DNA of 13,672 bases, from NCBI GenBank assembly GCA_004524535.1, contig SDNY01000100.1, positions 1 through 13,672 on the forward strand. Direction: 5' to 3'. This stretch comes from Promethearchaeota archaeon. Lineage in GTDB: Archaea > Asgardarchaeota > Lokiarchaeia > Sigyniarchaeales > SOKP01. Under the pieces are notes generated by a model that saw only the letters and a list, made by a program, of their open reading frames with translations, made no database searches and had not been told where the DNA came from. The position numbers were made by a program, and so were the translations under genes. Below are positions 5,582 to 11,070 of the stretch, piece after piece; the stretch's first letter is position 1; the number at the start of each line of letters is the position of its first letter.

Positions 5582-6496
5582 ATGAATTTGAAAAAAGAAT
5601 TAATTGATGGGAATTTCAAATATCACTGGAAATTAATCAAAGAACAAGAGAAAATAAGGATTGGAGATAAAATTCCTAGGTATCCAATTTTAATTCTCAC
5701 TTGTATGGATCCGAGAATAGATATTCATCGAATATTTCAATTAGAGCCTGACGATGTGTTTGTTTTAAGAAATGCGGGGAATTTAATAACAAATGATATG
5801 CTAAGATCGATTTTAATTACTATTCATGAGTATAATATCAAATATATTGTAATTCTGGGGCATCTTGATTGTGGAATGACAAGAATAGATATAGCAGATC
5901 TTAAAACAAGATTATCTTCTAAATCATTAGAGTTCATATGTAGGAGTGGGTTTAATCCATTAATAGAATTAAGGAATTTTTTTAAACCATTTATAGATGA
6001 GCTAGAAAATGTAAAAAATCAGATTGAAATATTAAAAAAATTTCAAGGAATTCCGTCAGATATAGAAATTACAGGAATGATATATGATGTTGAAACAGGA
6101 TGGGTTTTTGAATATAATATATTAAAGGATTTAAAATTTATAGAAAATTTTGGGAAAAATTATAGAAATATATTATACGAAAAACGTCTTCAATTTGTTG
6201 ACTTTATTGAGGCTCATGAGAATCAGATTGTGAATTCAGGAGGTTTAATAGAAAAAAGTGGAGACGGAGTAAAAATTGAAGGCAATGATGGTATTGAGGT
6301 TCAAAATCTATTAACTCATGAAAAAGTCAATGACACTCCAAATAATCAAAAGCTTGAGGAAAACGATCAAGTTTTATTCGAATTTCCTAATGTTAAAGTT
6401 CCTAAGATTATTTTACCTAAAATAACTATTCATATACCAAAAATAACTATTTATACACCTAAAATTTACAGGAAGGATAAACAAGAGAGTTTTTAA
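5582..6496 (+). CDS. Beta-class carbonic anhydrase (clade D/Cab-type family) with a long C-terminal extension
   Basis: Zinc-ligand motifs CMDPR (CxDxR) and GHLDCGM (HxxC), plus RNAGN and GMIYDVETG. Confidence 0.92.
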   Translation: MNLKKELIDGNFKYHWKLIKEQEKIRIGDKIPRYPILILTCMDPRIDIHRIFQLEPDDVFVLRNAGNLITNDMLRSILITIHEYNIKYIVILGHLDCGMTRIDIADLKTRLSSKSLEFICRSGFNPLIELRNFFKPFIDELENVKNQIEILKKFQGIPSDIEITGMIYDVETGWVFEYNILKDLKFIENFGKNYRNILYEKRLQFVDFIEAHENQIVNSGGLIEKSGDGVKIEGNDGIEVQNLLTHEKVNDTPNNQKLEENDQVLFEFPNVKVPKIILPKITIHIPKITIYTPKIYRKDKQESF

Positions 6497-8308: not shown

Positions 8309-8347
8309 CTTAAACAGAATTTAACGCCTCCGTGGCTTAGCCGGTAG

Positions 8348-8378
8348 ATAAAAACAATTATTAATAGTCTTAACCGCA
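8348..8378 (+). other. tRNA-Thr intron 1 (31 nt, D-arm, 22/23)
   Basis: Strict BHB: central helix CGGT(8342-8345)/ACCG(8373-8376), bulges AG|A and CA|A, inner helix TAA/TTA, outer pairs G8340-C8381 and C8341-G8380. Confidence 0.88.
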
Positions 8379-8393
8379 AGCATTGCCTTGGTA

Positions 8394-8422
8394 TTAAATT
8401 GAGCTTATAACTTTAAATGAAA
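8394..8422 (+). other. tRNA-Thr intron 2 (29 nt, canonical 37/38)
   Basis: Removal restores the 7-nt loop TTGGTAA. The central helix TTGG/ATGA is weak, and the inner stem is TTAAA/TTTAA. Confidence 0.85.
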
Positions 8423-8444
8423 AGGCAAAGGTCGCGGGTTCAAA

Positions 8445-8474
8445 GGATTGAAACACATCGTTTCTTTCAGAAAT
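8445..8474 (+). other. tRNA-Thr intron 3 (30 nt, T-loop, 59/60)
   Basis: Removal restores TTCAAAT. TTC(8439-8441) pairs with GAA(8470-8472), the 3' bulge is AT|T, and the internal hairpin is GAAAC/GTTTC. Confidence 0.85.
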
Positions 8475-8532
8475 TCCCGCCGGAGGCTTCTTATCATTAT
8501 CTTACAGTCTAGATATAATTTAAATACTCTTA

Positions 8533-10209
8533 TTACTCCAGATCTTGAAATTTGTTTGAAAATGTATTCCATATTTTGTTTAAATTCATACCAGAGAACA
8601 GATTATTTACCATATAATTCTTAGGATTAGCTGCTTTCCAATTGTCAAAATTGAATACGTGTTTACATATTAAAAGATGAAAATCTTCCTTTTCTAATTC
8701 AATTTTAGTAAGTCGTCCATTCTCATCTATTATATCAATTATTGCACCAAATTTTAAAATTTCAATAACTTTTTGTCTCTGTAATTTATATTTTAACTCT
8801 GATAATGAATTACAACCATTATTTTTAACAATTCTTTTGACGATTGTCTGAATTTTTGTCTTACCAATTGATAATATCTCAGCAATCGACTTTTGATTTG
8901 AACCAGAATAAGATCTTAACATTTTATTAGAAATAAACCATTCTTTCCATTGATATTCAGGAATCCCAACAAAGTTTTTTTCTGTTTTATCTAAATATTG
9001 CATAATTTCTTCCCAACTTGCTCTTGTGTCTATATTGAATAATTTATAGATTTTTTCGATATCTGTTTTTAAATATTCCTCTCCATAACTCCACTCATAA
9101 AACCAACCATCATTCAGTAATTCAGCATCCTTAAATGTTAAATAGATTTCATGCCTGGATATCCCTTCAATGCTATCTAAGTGTTCGATGATTGGTTTTA
9201 AAAACATTTCCTGAGCTTTATAAGATCCCCCAAAGATTTCAGTTATTTTATGCCTTAGAGTGCGGATCTTAACATCCTTTATATTATAAAATTCTTTTAA
9301 ATCTTTCAACATCTTAGGTGCGGATAATCCTAAAGCAATCATAATAGCAATATCATATAATGGTAATGGAAAATTTGTACCTGTTTGCCCACCTGAAGTA
9401 GTATTCAATCCTTTCTTTCTTAAATCTAAATATTCAGGATATTCATTATTGAAATCTTTTATTATAAGCCCTTGCTCAAATAGACTTTTTAGTGGAAAAT
9501 TTTTAATATAGTATATCTCTCTAGAACCGAGTTTAATAGAACTATAATGCAACTCAATGATACAAGGTCTAATATATGGTTTGATGTTATGTTCAATTTG
9601 GTGAAGAAACTTCCTTCTTTCATTATACCTCTGTAGAGCGGAAAGAGTAGATATTTTCTTATAGGTTTCTATTAAATCATAACCAATGTTTAAAAGAACA
9701 TTACATATTGCTTCATAAAACTTATGATATCCTGGTTGATTTATATCACCATTACTTTTATAATAACCTCTCAAAGCATTAATAATATGTTCTTCAAATC
9801 TTTTTTCTATTCTCTTTTCAGTAAGACCACAATAAAATAAGCCTTGAACATCAACTGCATAAATTAGACCTCCATATTCATATTTTCCAATATTATATAA
9901 TTTTAATGCCCCATGAAAATCAGGATCATTAAATGGAATATATTCTCTTCCTTTTTGATCAATTATAATCTTTTCTTCTGGATTATAAAGTCTATATTGC
10001 TTTTTTTGTTCTAGCTGTTTCATTAAGCTAGAGATTGCTTTTTTAGCCTCTTTTCCTATTAAGGAATCCAAATTAAGATATTTCTTAATTAATTCATGAA
10101 TTAATTCCTTCTTCTCAGATTTAAACCATACAGAAATCCCCTGATCAGGATTAATACCATTAATACTTGCTTTTTTTTCTTTATTAATTATGTTATTTCT
10201 TTCATTCAT
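8533..10209 (-). CDS. Free-standing GIY-YIG endonuclease-like protein with a long C-terminal putative DNA-binding region
   Basis: GLIY(114-117)-x8-YCG(126-128), KRFEEH (R137, H141), FYEAI, REIYYI (E231) and GLNTTSGG (N269) follow the GIY-YIG motif order, with insertions. HTH-like segments follow (e.g. SIAEILSIGKTKIQTIVKRI). Confidence 0.75.
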   Translation of the reverse strand: MNERNNIINKEKKASINGINPDQGISVWFKSEKKELIHELIKKYLNLDSLIGKEAKKAISSLMKQLEQKKQYRLYNPEEKIIIDQKGREYIPFNDPDFHGALKLYNIGKYEYGGLIYAVDVQGLFYCGLTEKRIEKRFEEHIINALRGYYKSNGDINQPGYHKFYEAICNVLLNIGYDLIETYKKISTLSALQRYNERRKFLHQIEHNIKPYIRPCIIELHYSSIKLGSREIYYIKNFPLKSLFEQGLIIKDFNNEYPEYLDLRKKGLNTTSGGQTGTNFPLPLYDIAIMIALGLSAPKMLKDLKEFYNIKDVKIRTLRHKITEIFGGSYKAQEMFLKPIIEHLDSIEGISRHEIYLTFKDAELLNDGWFYEWSYGEEYLKTDIEKIYKLFNIDTRASWEEIMQYLDKTEKNFVGIPEYQWKEWFISNKMLRSYSGSNQKSIAEILSIGKTKIQTIVKRIVKNNGCNSLSELKYKLQRQKVIEILKFGAIIDIIDENGRLTKIELEKEDFHLLICKHVFNFDNWKAANPKNYMVNNLFSGMNLNKIWNTFSNKFQDLE

Positions 10210-10525
10210 ACTGTTAATAGATTTATTAATTTTTTATGATAAAATCATTGATATAAATCAATCTTAAAATATAGGTTTCTTTGTGTCTAATTTCTCAAAA
10301 AAGTTTAGTTGAATATTCGGGTGATAATGGTAAATCATATCAACCATAATTTCCTCAATAATACTATAGATCTAATTAATTTAAAAGAAAAGAGTGATGT
10401 AATTTATAAATATAATCTTATTTGATAAAATAAAAAAGATAACACGAATTTTATATTTATTATTACAAATCAATATTTAAGTTTTTATATTAGCCGGTGT
10501 GGCTTAGCTGGTTATAGCGCCAGAC

Positions 10526-10568
10526 ACACGCTCATTCTGAGAGTTGGGTCAGACTGAATGTGCTGGAC
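10526..10568 (+). other. tRNA-Met intron 1 (43 nt, 32/33)
   Basis: BHB: CCAG(10520-10523)/CTGG(10563-10566), bulges AC|A and AC|T, inner helix CACG/TGTG, outer pair G10519-C10570. GAC at both ends makes the junction ambiguous by sequence alone, and BHB geometry selects 32/33. Confidence 0.85.
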
Positions 10569-10595
10569 TCATAATCTGGAGGTCGCGGGCTCAAA

Positions 10596-10624
10596 ATTAT
10601 ATACCATTTCGCTATAATTGAGAT
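10596..10624 (+). other. tRNA-Met intron 2 (29 nt, T-loop, 59/60)
   Basis: Central helix CTCA(10590-10593)/TGAG(10619-10622), 3' bulge AT|T, inner stem ATTATA/TATAAT. Confidence 0.87.
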
Positions 10625-10638
10625 TCCCGCCACCGGCA

Positions 10639-10645: not shown

Positions 10646-10782
10646 CATCCTATTGGCCTATTAAAATCAAATAATCTTTTCTAAAGAATTAAAAACTAAA
10701 ATTAAATAATTTTTAATATTTTTACAAATAAGGTAAAATTCATAAATTATTTTTATTAAAGCTACTATTCCTAGATGATTTT

Positions 10783-11070
10783 ATGGGGAGAAAATATAGA
10801 AGTCAAAGTAAGAGATATGAGGACTATAAACACCAAGGAAAGAAACCCCGAACAAATTGGCGAACAAGGAGATATAATCGAAAAAGACACGAAAAAGCAA
10901 TGGAAGGTGTTTATAGATACAAATATCGTAGTATTTTGGGTTGGTTATTTGCAAGAAGGCGAAGGAAAGACGAGTCATTAAATGAATATAGACTAAAACT
11001 CATTAATCTCGAACTTTGTTCATTTATCATAATATTGCTAATTATTATACTCTATTTAGTATATAATTAA
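10783..11070 (+). CDS. Small Arg/Lys/Tyr-rich protein with a C-terminal TM helix
   Basis: Longest of three overlapping ORFs (95 aa), with a coherent basic region followed by LCSFIIILLIIILYLVYN. Confidence 0.55.
   Translation: MGRKYRSQSKRYEDYKHQGKKPRTNWRTRRYNRKRHEKAMEGVYRYKYRSILGWLFARRRRKDESLNEYRLKLINLELCSFIIILLIIILYLVYN

Follow-up and report, generated by a model that had tools for sequence, protein, structure and literature searches.

A 2.0-kb cassette with a single gene, P0001, lies between two intron-bearing transfer RNA (tRNA) genes on a chromosomal contig of an Asgard archaeon, and in related genomes the same tRNA-Thr/tRNA-Met junction is found empty, occupied by a gene of an unrelated endonuclease family, or decayed. 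The window analysed here is the whole of contig SDNY01000100.1 (Promethearchaeota archaeon, assembly GCA_004524535.1; 13,672 nt), which has a G+C content of about 30% and belongs to a genome (G000) of 3.66 Mb and 99% completeness. We read the P0001 gene as a free-standing GIY-YIG homing endonuclease carried on a cassette that was inserted into the spacer between tRNA-Thr and tRNA-Met, and we put the probability of this reading at roughly 0.65. An earlier reading of the window, made from its letters alone (the original prediction), had proposed a chromosomal archaeal homing system in which the nuclease cuts intron-less tRNA alleles, while the short bulge-helix-bulge (BHB) introns of the flanking tRNA genes give immunity and are co-converted. 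The cassette-like behaviour in that proposal holds up, given the empty alleles, the related fragment at the junction in genome G022, the LAGLIDADG occupants of the same spacer and a homologue beside a tRNA-Gln gene in genome G011; the role assigned to the introns is not supported by the counts.

A single-gene cassette separates two multi-intron tRNA genes

Neither ARAGORN nor Rfam (at E ≤ 1) reports a tRNA when run on the unspliced DNA of the window, because non-canonical introns break their models. Once introns are removed in silico, two canonical cloverleaves appear, with ARAGORN scores of 115.5 and 115.8: a tRNA-Thr with three introns and a tRNA-Met with two (Table 1). A purpose-built multi-intron scanner run over the window finds exactly these two genes, and the predicted fold of pre-tRNA-Thr keeps the acceptor, D, anticodon and T stems intact. 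The identity of the first gene is read from its orthologue in G005, a genome of the same genus, which has no introns and an anticodon loop of TTGGTAA, and therefore is Thr(GGU); the Phe(GAA) that ARAGORN offered as an alternative was rejected as an artefact of ambiguous intron placement. The scanner is incomplete: it lists 28 candidates in G000, where about 46 are expected, and misses the tRNAs with unusual T loops in G022. ARAGORN in intron mode reports 22 tRNAs across G000.

Between the two co-oriented tRNA genes (interval 8489-10492) the only open reading frame (ORF) of at least 60 amino acids (aa) is that of P0001, which starts with ATG and encodes 558 aa. The original prediction had described just such a lone ORF, ending 44 nt from the tRNA-Thr 3′ end, and the ORF list and spliced tRNA models agree with it to the nucleotide (outer base of the stop codon at 8533, discriminator base at 8488). 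It had also seen no integrase, methylase or attachment-site (att) duplication. Consistent with this, no recombinase, integrase or methylase domain was found in the 13 window ORFs scanned, and a repeat search found no att-type direct repeats flanking the cassette, the sole repeats being segments common to both tRNAs. In three runs belonging to two other studies, metagenome contigs of 95-99% identity span the two ends of the cassette, from tRNA-Thr to the ORF 3′ end and from the ORF 5′ end to tRNA-Met; because these contigs are independent, the arrangement is not an assembly artefact. A joint in run X3 that skips 8400-10493 was considered as an empty allele of the G000 strain and rejected, since its shorter side is 22 letters and its depth is far higher; we take it to come from another relative, which is more abundant and has its two tRNAs side by side.

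The junction is empty, occupied or decayed in related genomes

Using the tRNA-Thr/tRNA-Met DNA of G005 as the query, we obtained matches in 121 of 134 genomes and mapped 36 loci. Spacers were computed for 31 of these; the loci of G011, G012, G013, G110 and G064 gave overlapping or opposite-strand matches and were left out. The order tRNA-Thr(GGU) then tRNA-Met(CAU) is conserved across the family (Promethearchaeia), with a spacer of 10-26 nt in 11 genomes (including G005, G002 and G001, all of the same genus as the window), about 90 nt in 3, 177-278 nt in 6, 930-1177 nt in 7 and 1370-4649 nt in 3, and of 2004 nt in the window. In G005 and G002 about 13 nt separate the two genes. The original prediction had looked to the Thr-Met interval of relatives for empty alleles, and the 11 genomes with the shortest spacers provide them.

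In one genome of a different genus, G022, the spacer holds a 180-codon fragment of the P0001 family (aa 93-265, 38% identity) that starts about 25 nt after tRNA-Thr and lies on the tRNA strand, in the opposite orientation to the window gene. The occupation in G022 is either a separate event or, at the least, a rearrangement. Other contents occur in the same interval as well: G148 carries a 234-codon TnpB/OrfB_IS605 fragment (L088:1663-2364), and G045 and G057 carry ordinary cellular genes.

The spacer is also occupied by endonuclease genes of a second kind. ORFs of 260-270 codons with two LAGLIDADG motifs, matching LAGLIDADG_3 (PF14528) above the Pfam cut-off, are present in G097, G079, G143, G123 and G004, the last from the same genus as the window; the spacer ORF of G106 falls just under the cut-off and aligns with the G123 cassette (Table 1). 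These ORFs are unrelated in sequence to P0001 and share its layout, in that the 3′ end of every one of them abuts the 3′ end of tRNA-Thr. The cassettes are 71-90% identical over three genera, and among G097, G079 and G143 the cassette together with the tRNAs is 85-88% identical; the DNA beyond the tRNAs at the LAGLIDADG loci gives no alignment at all, even within one genus. In addition, five genomes have ORF-less spacers of 177-278 nt with sequence in common with these cassettes. The spacers of G076 (L077), G077 (L082), G141 (L078) and G136 (L079) align to both cassette ends, and that of G063 (L083) aligns to one end only. Because the sequences align to cassette ends, we read these five short spacers as remnants of internal deletion. 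The junction thus exists in empty, occupied and decayed states and has been occupied recurrently by two unrelated endonuclease families, and therefore carries the signature of free-standing homing endonuclease genes.

Some further observations concern the LAGLIDADG genes. In G143, besides the full tRNA-Met, nucleotides 1-29 of that gene are repeated between tRNA-Thr and the LAGLIDADG gene (L076:1654-1682); the repeat is possibly the footprint of an insertion or repair event. At the start of contig C254 of G007 (L102:1-163), the DNA upstream of tRNA-Met resembles, by eye, the start of the G004 cassette; this junction is probably occupied too, with the contig cut there. In the window's own genome, LAGLIDADG_3 and GIY-YIG Pfam matches are found only on contigs without scanner tRNAs, and the LAGLIDADG matches, which lie inside long ORFs, are probably inteins.

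P0001 has the predicted fold and the residues of a GIY-YIG nuclease

On the evidence of a structure model and of alignments, P0001 is a real but divergent member of the GIY-YIG nuclease superfamily. The AlphaFold2 (AF2) model of its catalytic domain (aa 85-285) has a predicted local distance difference test score (pLDDT) of 89.3 and a predicted template modelling score (pTM) of 0.84, and its best match among 48,161 PDB chains is the catalytic domain of I-TevI (1ln0_A; Z 8.0, root-mean-square deviation 2.3 A, 88 of 92 residues, 19% identity; VIA-align). T4 EndoII (2wsh_A, Z 5.6) and PD-T4-3 (9u75_A, Z 5.4) come next, making the top three all GIY-YIG nucleases; unrelated helical proteins score Z 4.5 and below, and UvrC (1ycz_A) scores Z 4.0. 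Structure prediction thus confirms the fold that had been proposed from the letters. Foldseek places I-TevI at rank 10 for the domain model (E 0.95) and returns no match for the AF2 model of the whole protein (pLDDT 66.5).

The GIY-YIG motifs had been placed in order at 9388-9870, and they are indeed there: this span, aa 114-274, holds G114, Y117, Y126, G128, R137, H141, E219, H221, E231, N269 and G273, and the residues align in relatives. An alignment of 25 diverse relatives shows no variation in the columns of Y117, Y126, G128, R137, H221 and E231, and conservation of H141, E219 and N269 in at least 90% of the sequences. The candidates for catalysis are Y117, Y126, G128, R137, H141, E231 and N269. 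Between its helix 1 and strand 3 the domain also carries an insertion of about 75 aa that is helical (model residues 79-125). Against Pfam, P0001 itself gives only weak matches (E ≥ 0.0025, all below cut-offs), with no match to PF01541 at E ≤ 1, and it matches 0 PHROGs phage families at E ≤ 1. PF01541 is matched by 3 of 11 close relatives (best 1.3e-8), and its cut-off of 22.6 bits is passed by the relatives P0028 (27.7 bits) and P0033 (24.6 bits). Because P0001 has no PF01541 match of its own, its GIY-YIG homology rests on transitive and structural evidence.

The C-terminal region had been described as carrying helix-turn-helix (HTH)-like segments. The region is helix-rich over about 270 aa; an HTH identity is at most suggested, by sub-threshold Pfam HTH matches in the family and by aa 410-551, which in the low-confidence whole-protein model resemble AraC-type bipartite HTH or LuxR-type DNA-binding domains (Z 4.3-5.5). 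This region also contains a conserved 'LPLYDIAIMIALG.S' segment. The nearest Atlas clusters are phage GIY-YIG+HTH proteins (score 0.85), a match that we treat as a lead only.

P0001 relatives are sparse, and some lie near tRNA genes

A P0001-family match occurs in 8 of 40 relatives, and full-length intact copies are present only in G000 and G011. Decayed copies are seen in G012, with 4 in-frame stops, and in G022, with three fragments, and the family was not found in the same-genus genomes G001 and G005, which are 92-98% complete. A wider search of 1.84 billion representatives returned 70 relatives. The short form of the protein is conserved end to end in P0002, P0004, P0019 and the G011 homologue.

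The homologous gene of G011 is convergent, as in the window, with a two-intron tRNA-Gln(CUG) whose 3′ end lies 100 nt from the end of the homologue; beyond the tRNA-Gln lies a tRNA-Ser (GCU, read from sequence). Synteny between G011 and G023, a genome of the same genus, ends at the last base of the tRNA-Gln. A tRNA lies no more than 2 kb downstream of the family gene at 4 of 7 evaluable loci (G000, G011, L067 and L068), compared with about 1.5% expected from 28 scanner tRNAs in 3.66 Mb; 4 of 7 is a lower bound, because the scanner misses many tRNAs, and its reporting no tRNA near the other loci is weak evidence. The original prediction had asked whether homologues are enriched next to tRNAs, and the evaluable loci point that way. 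In G011 the homologue sits within a stretch of about 4.2 kb (L051:1940-6190, contig C70) together with three ORFs (130, 182 and 248 aa) for which Pfam gives no match; this stretch is absent after the tRNA-Gln in G023 and may be a larger insertion.

The family also has long forms (P0012-P0018, loci L064-L069), proteins of 700-3014 aa that have the whole GIY-YIG+HTH module as their C-terminus. The N-terminal parts of these proteins match no Pfam domain and contain hydrophobic stretches, and one segment is common to several of them.

tRNA introns and the immunity idea

In collaborative homing, a free-standing endonuclease acts beside an ORF-less intron, as in the cyanophage psbA case. Applied to the window, the idea is that the nuclease cuts intron-less tRNA alleles, that BHB introns protect and are co-converted, and that the nuclease in this way drives intron gain. 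We consider this unlikely. The tRNA-Thr gene has introns in all 8 alleles with an endonuclease gene, the window allele having the most, and in 23 of the 28 that lack such a gene (Fisher one-sided p = 0.26). This outcome comes near to one that the original prediction had itself named as refuting it, an equal frequency of introns where the gene is missing. Thus, introns are nearly as common in the absence of a nuclease gene, and the correlation that the original prediction proposed to look for is reduced to a weak, post-hoc trend: when remnant-bearing alleles are counted as occupied, 13 of 13 compared with 18 of 23 have introns, with means of 1.54 and 1.0 (Mann-Whitney one-sided p = 0.02), in a grouping that was chosen after seeing the data and that counts related genomes as independent. 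In these counts the tRNA-Thr genes of G011 and G012, for which spliced alignment is unreliable, were entered as at least 1 intron, and that of G001 as 1, by eye.

What keeps the idea alive is this trend together with two further patterns. Within the genus of the window, tRNA-Thr has 0, 0 and 1 introns in alleles without a nuclease gene, 2 beside the LAGLIDADG gene and 3 beside the GIY-YIG gene. In both flanking tRNAs, moreover, the T-loop intron splits the sequence GTTCAAATCC. Phage SegB is reported to cut inside tRNA genes at the motif RAWTSGAAC (PMC13096335), and by our own comparison of the letters the complement of that motif would resemble the split T-loop sequence. The introns of tRNA-Thr lie at about positions 7/8, 20-22, 36-37, 41-44 and 56-59 and are almost all 28-31 nt long, and intron positions in both tRNAs shift between species of one genus with the length staying at about 30 nt; the shift in positions also counts in favour of the idea.

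Several other features of the introns do not favour an immunity role. Among occupied alleles, 4 of 8 have a T-loop intron in tRNA-Thr, as do about 11 of the 28 free alleles, and tRNA-Met has the same two introns, in identical positions, in the nuclease-free genomes G005 and G002. Introns are pervasive in G000, where 21 of 28 scanner tRNA candidates are longer than 100 nt and 10 have T-loop introns, yet there is one tRNA-adjoining family member in that genome. The five introns flanking the cassette have no other copy in G000: BLAST against the genome and against each other gives chance-level matches, and therefore no sign of recent intron transposition. Finally, a cassette in the spacer can by itself break the target, so that introns are not needed for immunity.

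Two observations on tRNA genes stand apart from this comparison. Introns occur in most tRNA genes of G000, and about half of the tRNAs expected there escape standard finders. Unusual T loops occur in G022, where the two tRNAs (L053:5195-5296 and 6321-6427) have ATCATAA and ATCATAT instead of TTCRANY, and in the tRNA-Thr of G001, which has ATCATAG.

Weighing the alternatives

Several results weigh against a free-standing homing endonuclease. Among the 36 junction loci, from 134 genomes screened by DNA, a single one holds an intact P0001-family copy, and the 31 spacers hold no GIY cassette remnant besides that in G022. P0001 finds nothing significant in Pfam, NCBIfam, PHROGs or PDB sequences, a PDB profile search included, and no relative in IMG/VR viral contigs, and at 558 aa it is, to our knowledge, about double the length of the free-standing homing enzymes known from the GIY-YIG group. 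The DNA upstream of tRNA-Thr differs between G000 and G005, and the locus is variable in general. In 6 of the 10 best relatives, which are proteins of 998-3014 aa, the module makes up the last ~530 aa; at six metagenome or genome loci it ends a long ORF (708 to >1088 codons) with no adjacent tRNA, and at 4 of these 6 a leucine-rich repeat (LRR) protein gene adjoins the module ORF. Because most relatives are C-terminal modules of giant proteins encoded beside LRR genes, the P0001 family as a whole may not be a simple homing-endonuclease family. These long forms lend themselves to the reading that the window gene is a relic, the surviving C-terminal nuclease module of an element that combines a giant protein with an LRR gene, integrates beside tRNA genes and uses the nuclease for site-specific integration. 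At L067 and L068 a tRNA does follow the LRR gene, the G011 gene lies in its larger stretch with three ORFs of no known family, and published Asgard elements pair an LRR gene with a homing-type endonuclease or have giant genes by tRNA sites (PMC8813620). The window cassette, however, is one ORF with its own ATG, of a short form that is conserved in the other proteins named above; the scanned window ORFs include no LRR gene, giant gene or recombinase, and the small single-gene LAGLIDADG cassettes in the same spacer fit classic free-standing endonuclease behaviour. We rank a relic just below the already unlikely immunity role of the introns.

Lower again stands the improbable case of a domesticated or cellular protein, a nuclease or DNA-binding protein for repair, defence or tRNA-gene regulation, that happens to lie in a variable intergenic region. 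The intact ORF does retain all of its catalytic residues, the junction is variable in other ways (the TnpB fragment of G148, the cellular genes of G045 and G057), and the long forms point to a role of the module that is not selfish. Against these points, the gene was not found in most relatives, including the nearly complete G001 and G005, and occurs as a pseudogene or fragments in G012 and G022; it shares an exact niche and layout with LAGLIDADG homing-type genes, and it has no conserved operon partner. A free-standing homing endonuclease on an inserted cassette remains the reading that we favour.

Features of the locus

Table 1. Positions of the tRNA genes, introns, cassette and protein regions in the window, and of the LAGLIDADG ORFs in the same spacer of related genomes
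Feature	Position	Strand	Basis
tRNA-Thr(GGU), three introns	8326..8488	+	in-silico splicing and ARAGORN; alignment with intron-less G005 orthologue; purpose-built scanner
tRNA-Thr intron, D loop, 30 nt	8348-8377	+	spliced model
tRNA-Thr intron, anticodon loop 37/38, 29 nt	8394-8422	+	spliced model
tRNA-Thr intron, T loop, 30 nt	8445-8474	+	spliced model
2.0-kb cassette filling the tRNA-Thr/tRNA-Met spacer	8489..10492	.	spacer of 10-26 nt in 11 related genomes
P0001, divergent GIY-YIG nuclease (predicted), helical N-terminal extension, helix-rich C-terminal region	8533..10209	-	alignments, relatives
C-terminal region, aa 284-558, putative multi-HTH DNA-binding part	8536..9360	-	weak HTH matches
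GIY-YIG catalytic domain, aa 85-285	9355..9957	-	conserved columns; AF2 model; structure match
tRNA-Met(CAU), two introns	10493..10638	+	in-silico splicing and ARAGORN; scanner; alignments
tRNA-Met intron 1, 43 nt, after position 30	~10523-10568, placement ambiguous by 3 nt	+	spliced model
tRNA-Met intron 2, T loop, 28 nt	~10593-10621	+	spliced model
Spacer LAGLIDADG ORF, G004	L054:1977-2795	antisense to tRNAs	PF14528
Spacer LAGLIDADG ORF, G097	L072:782-1570	antisense to tRNAs	PF14528
Spacer LAGLIDADG ORF, G079	L073:747-1535	antisense to tRNAs	PF14528
Spacer LAGLIDADG ORF, G143	L076:848-1630	antisense to tRNAs	PF14528
Spacer LAGLIDADG ORF, G123	L074:412-1602	antisense to tRNAs	PF14528
Spacer LAGLIDADG ORF, G106	L071:926-1684	antisense to tRNAs	just below PF14528 cut-off

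Downstream of tRNA-Met, the stretch 10775-11070 contains small overlapping ORFs of 68, 65 and 95 aa, the 95-aa one being lysine/arginine-rich and without a Pfam match.

Comparison with known systems

SegB of phages T4 and T6 resembles P0001 in several respects: it has a GIY-YIG domain, is encoded outside introns and inteins among tRNA genes, and shows presence/absence polymorphism, and its homologues are reported to be widely co-located with tRNA genes and to cut within them (PMC13096335). Unlike the phage-borne SegB gene, the P0001 gene is chromosomal and archaeal. The protein also differs from SegB in its 558-aa length, its N-terminal extension, the ~75-aa insertion in its catalytic domain, its ~270-aa C-terminus and its relatives fused to giant proteins, as well as in lacking a PHROGs match at E ≤ 1 and IMG/VR relatives; its nuclease activity is predicted. 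With I-TevI of phage T4 (PDB 1ln0, 1mk0), P0001 shares the sequence in which the catalytic residues follow one another and a build of two parts, one catalytic and one DNA-binding, the latter putative in P0001. In contrast to the intron-encoded I-TevI, the P0001 gene does not lie in an intron and its domain carries a helical insertion, and the zinc finger and linker of I-TevI were not detected in P0001 by any search, nor was there a PDB match at the sequence level.

The window is like the cyanophage psbA case in that a nuclease gene adjoins genes with ORF-less introns. It is unlike that case in that the introns are archaeal BHB-type tRNA introns of about 30 nt, which lie at many positions and are nearly as frequent where there is no nuclease. 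Archaeal LAGLIDADG homing endonucleases reside in ribosomal RNA (rRNA) introns and in inteins. The spacer ORFs have the two LAGLIDADG motifs and the PF14528 match of those enzymes and differ from them in being free-standing, antisense genes between two tRNA genes.

Mobile elements of Heimdallarchaeum provide a possible parallel to the long forms. Their published description places an LRR gene and a homing-type endonuclease of HeimM2 between a 16S rRNA gene and tRNA-Arg, and giant genes of aloposons beside tRNA integration sites (PMC8813620). These Asgard elements recall the long forms of the P0001 family, which are giant proteins with an LRR neighbour and sometimes a tRNA after it. The window cassette, unlike HeimM2 and the aloposons, consists of one 558-aa gene and has neither an LRR gene nor a giant one, and the endonuclease of HeimM2 is described as resembling rRNA-intron homing enzymes and not GIY-YIG enzymes (PMC8813620).

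A possible homing cycle and its significance

If P0001 is a homing endonuclease, its HTH-rich C-terminal part would recognise and bind a long stretch of conserved tRNA-gene sequence, located in or close to the Thr/Met junction, and its I-TevI-like catalytic domain would cut alleles that are without the cassette. Repair by recombination with a cassette-bearing copy would then transfer the gene to the cut allele, possibly along with neighbouring tRNA sequence. The allele that carries the cassette would be spared because its target is broken by the cassette, and perhaps by sequence differences in the flanking tRNAs. What the analysis shows is the predicted fold with its catalytic residues, the three states of the junction and its repeated occupation by two unrelated endonuclease families; that P0001 is active as a nuclease, has such a target and is mobile at the present day is inferred.

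Phages and organelles are well-known hosts of free-standing homing endonucleases. In the literature searched, which did not extend to subscription papers, we found no description of free-standing endonuclease cassettes between tRNA genes of archaeal chromosomes. The tRNA-Thr/tRNA-Met junction offers, at one site in related Asgard genomes, a natural series of empty, GIY-YIG-bearing, LAGLIDADG-bearing and decayed alleles, and this makes archaeal homing testable. P0001 would represent a new branch of GIY-YIG enzymes that is invisible to Pfam, and because its target is probably a long tRNA-gene sequence, it is of interest as a rare-cutting nuclease. Asgard archaea may also hold one more class of mobile element, as is hinted by the giant proteins, encoded beside LRR genes, to which the module of P0001 is fused.

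A broader and distinctly speculative view, which we think will probably not hold, is that conserved Asgard tRNA junctions are battlegrounds of GIY-YIG and LAGLIDADG free-standing homing endonucleases, where repeated double-strand breaks, co-conversion and selection for target immunity drive an unusually fast gain, loss and repositioning of ~30-nt BHB introns in the tRNA genes on either side. If it were true, it would provide a DNA-level mechanism for the turnover of archaeal tRNA introns. Although this idea is weakly supported so far, the locus opens to concrete experiment the long-standing question of how archaea acquire and relocate their tRNA introns.

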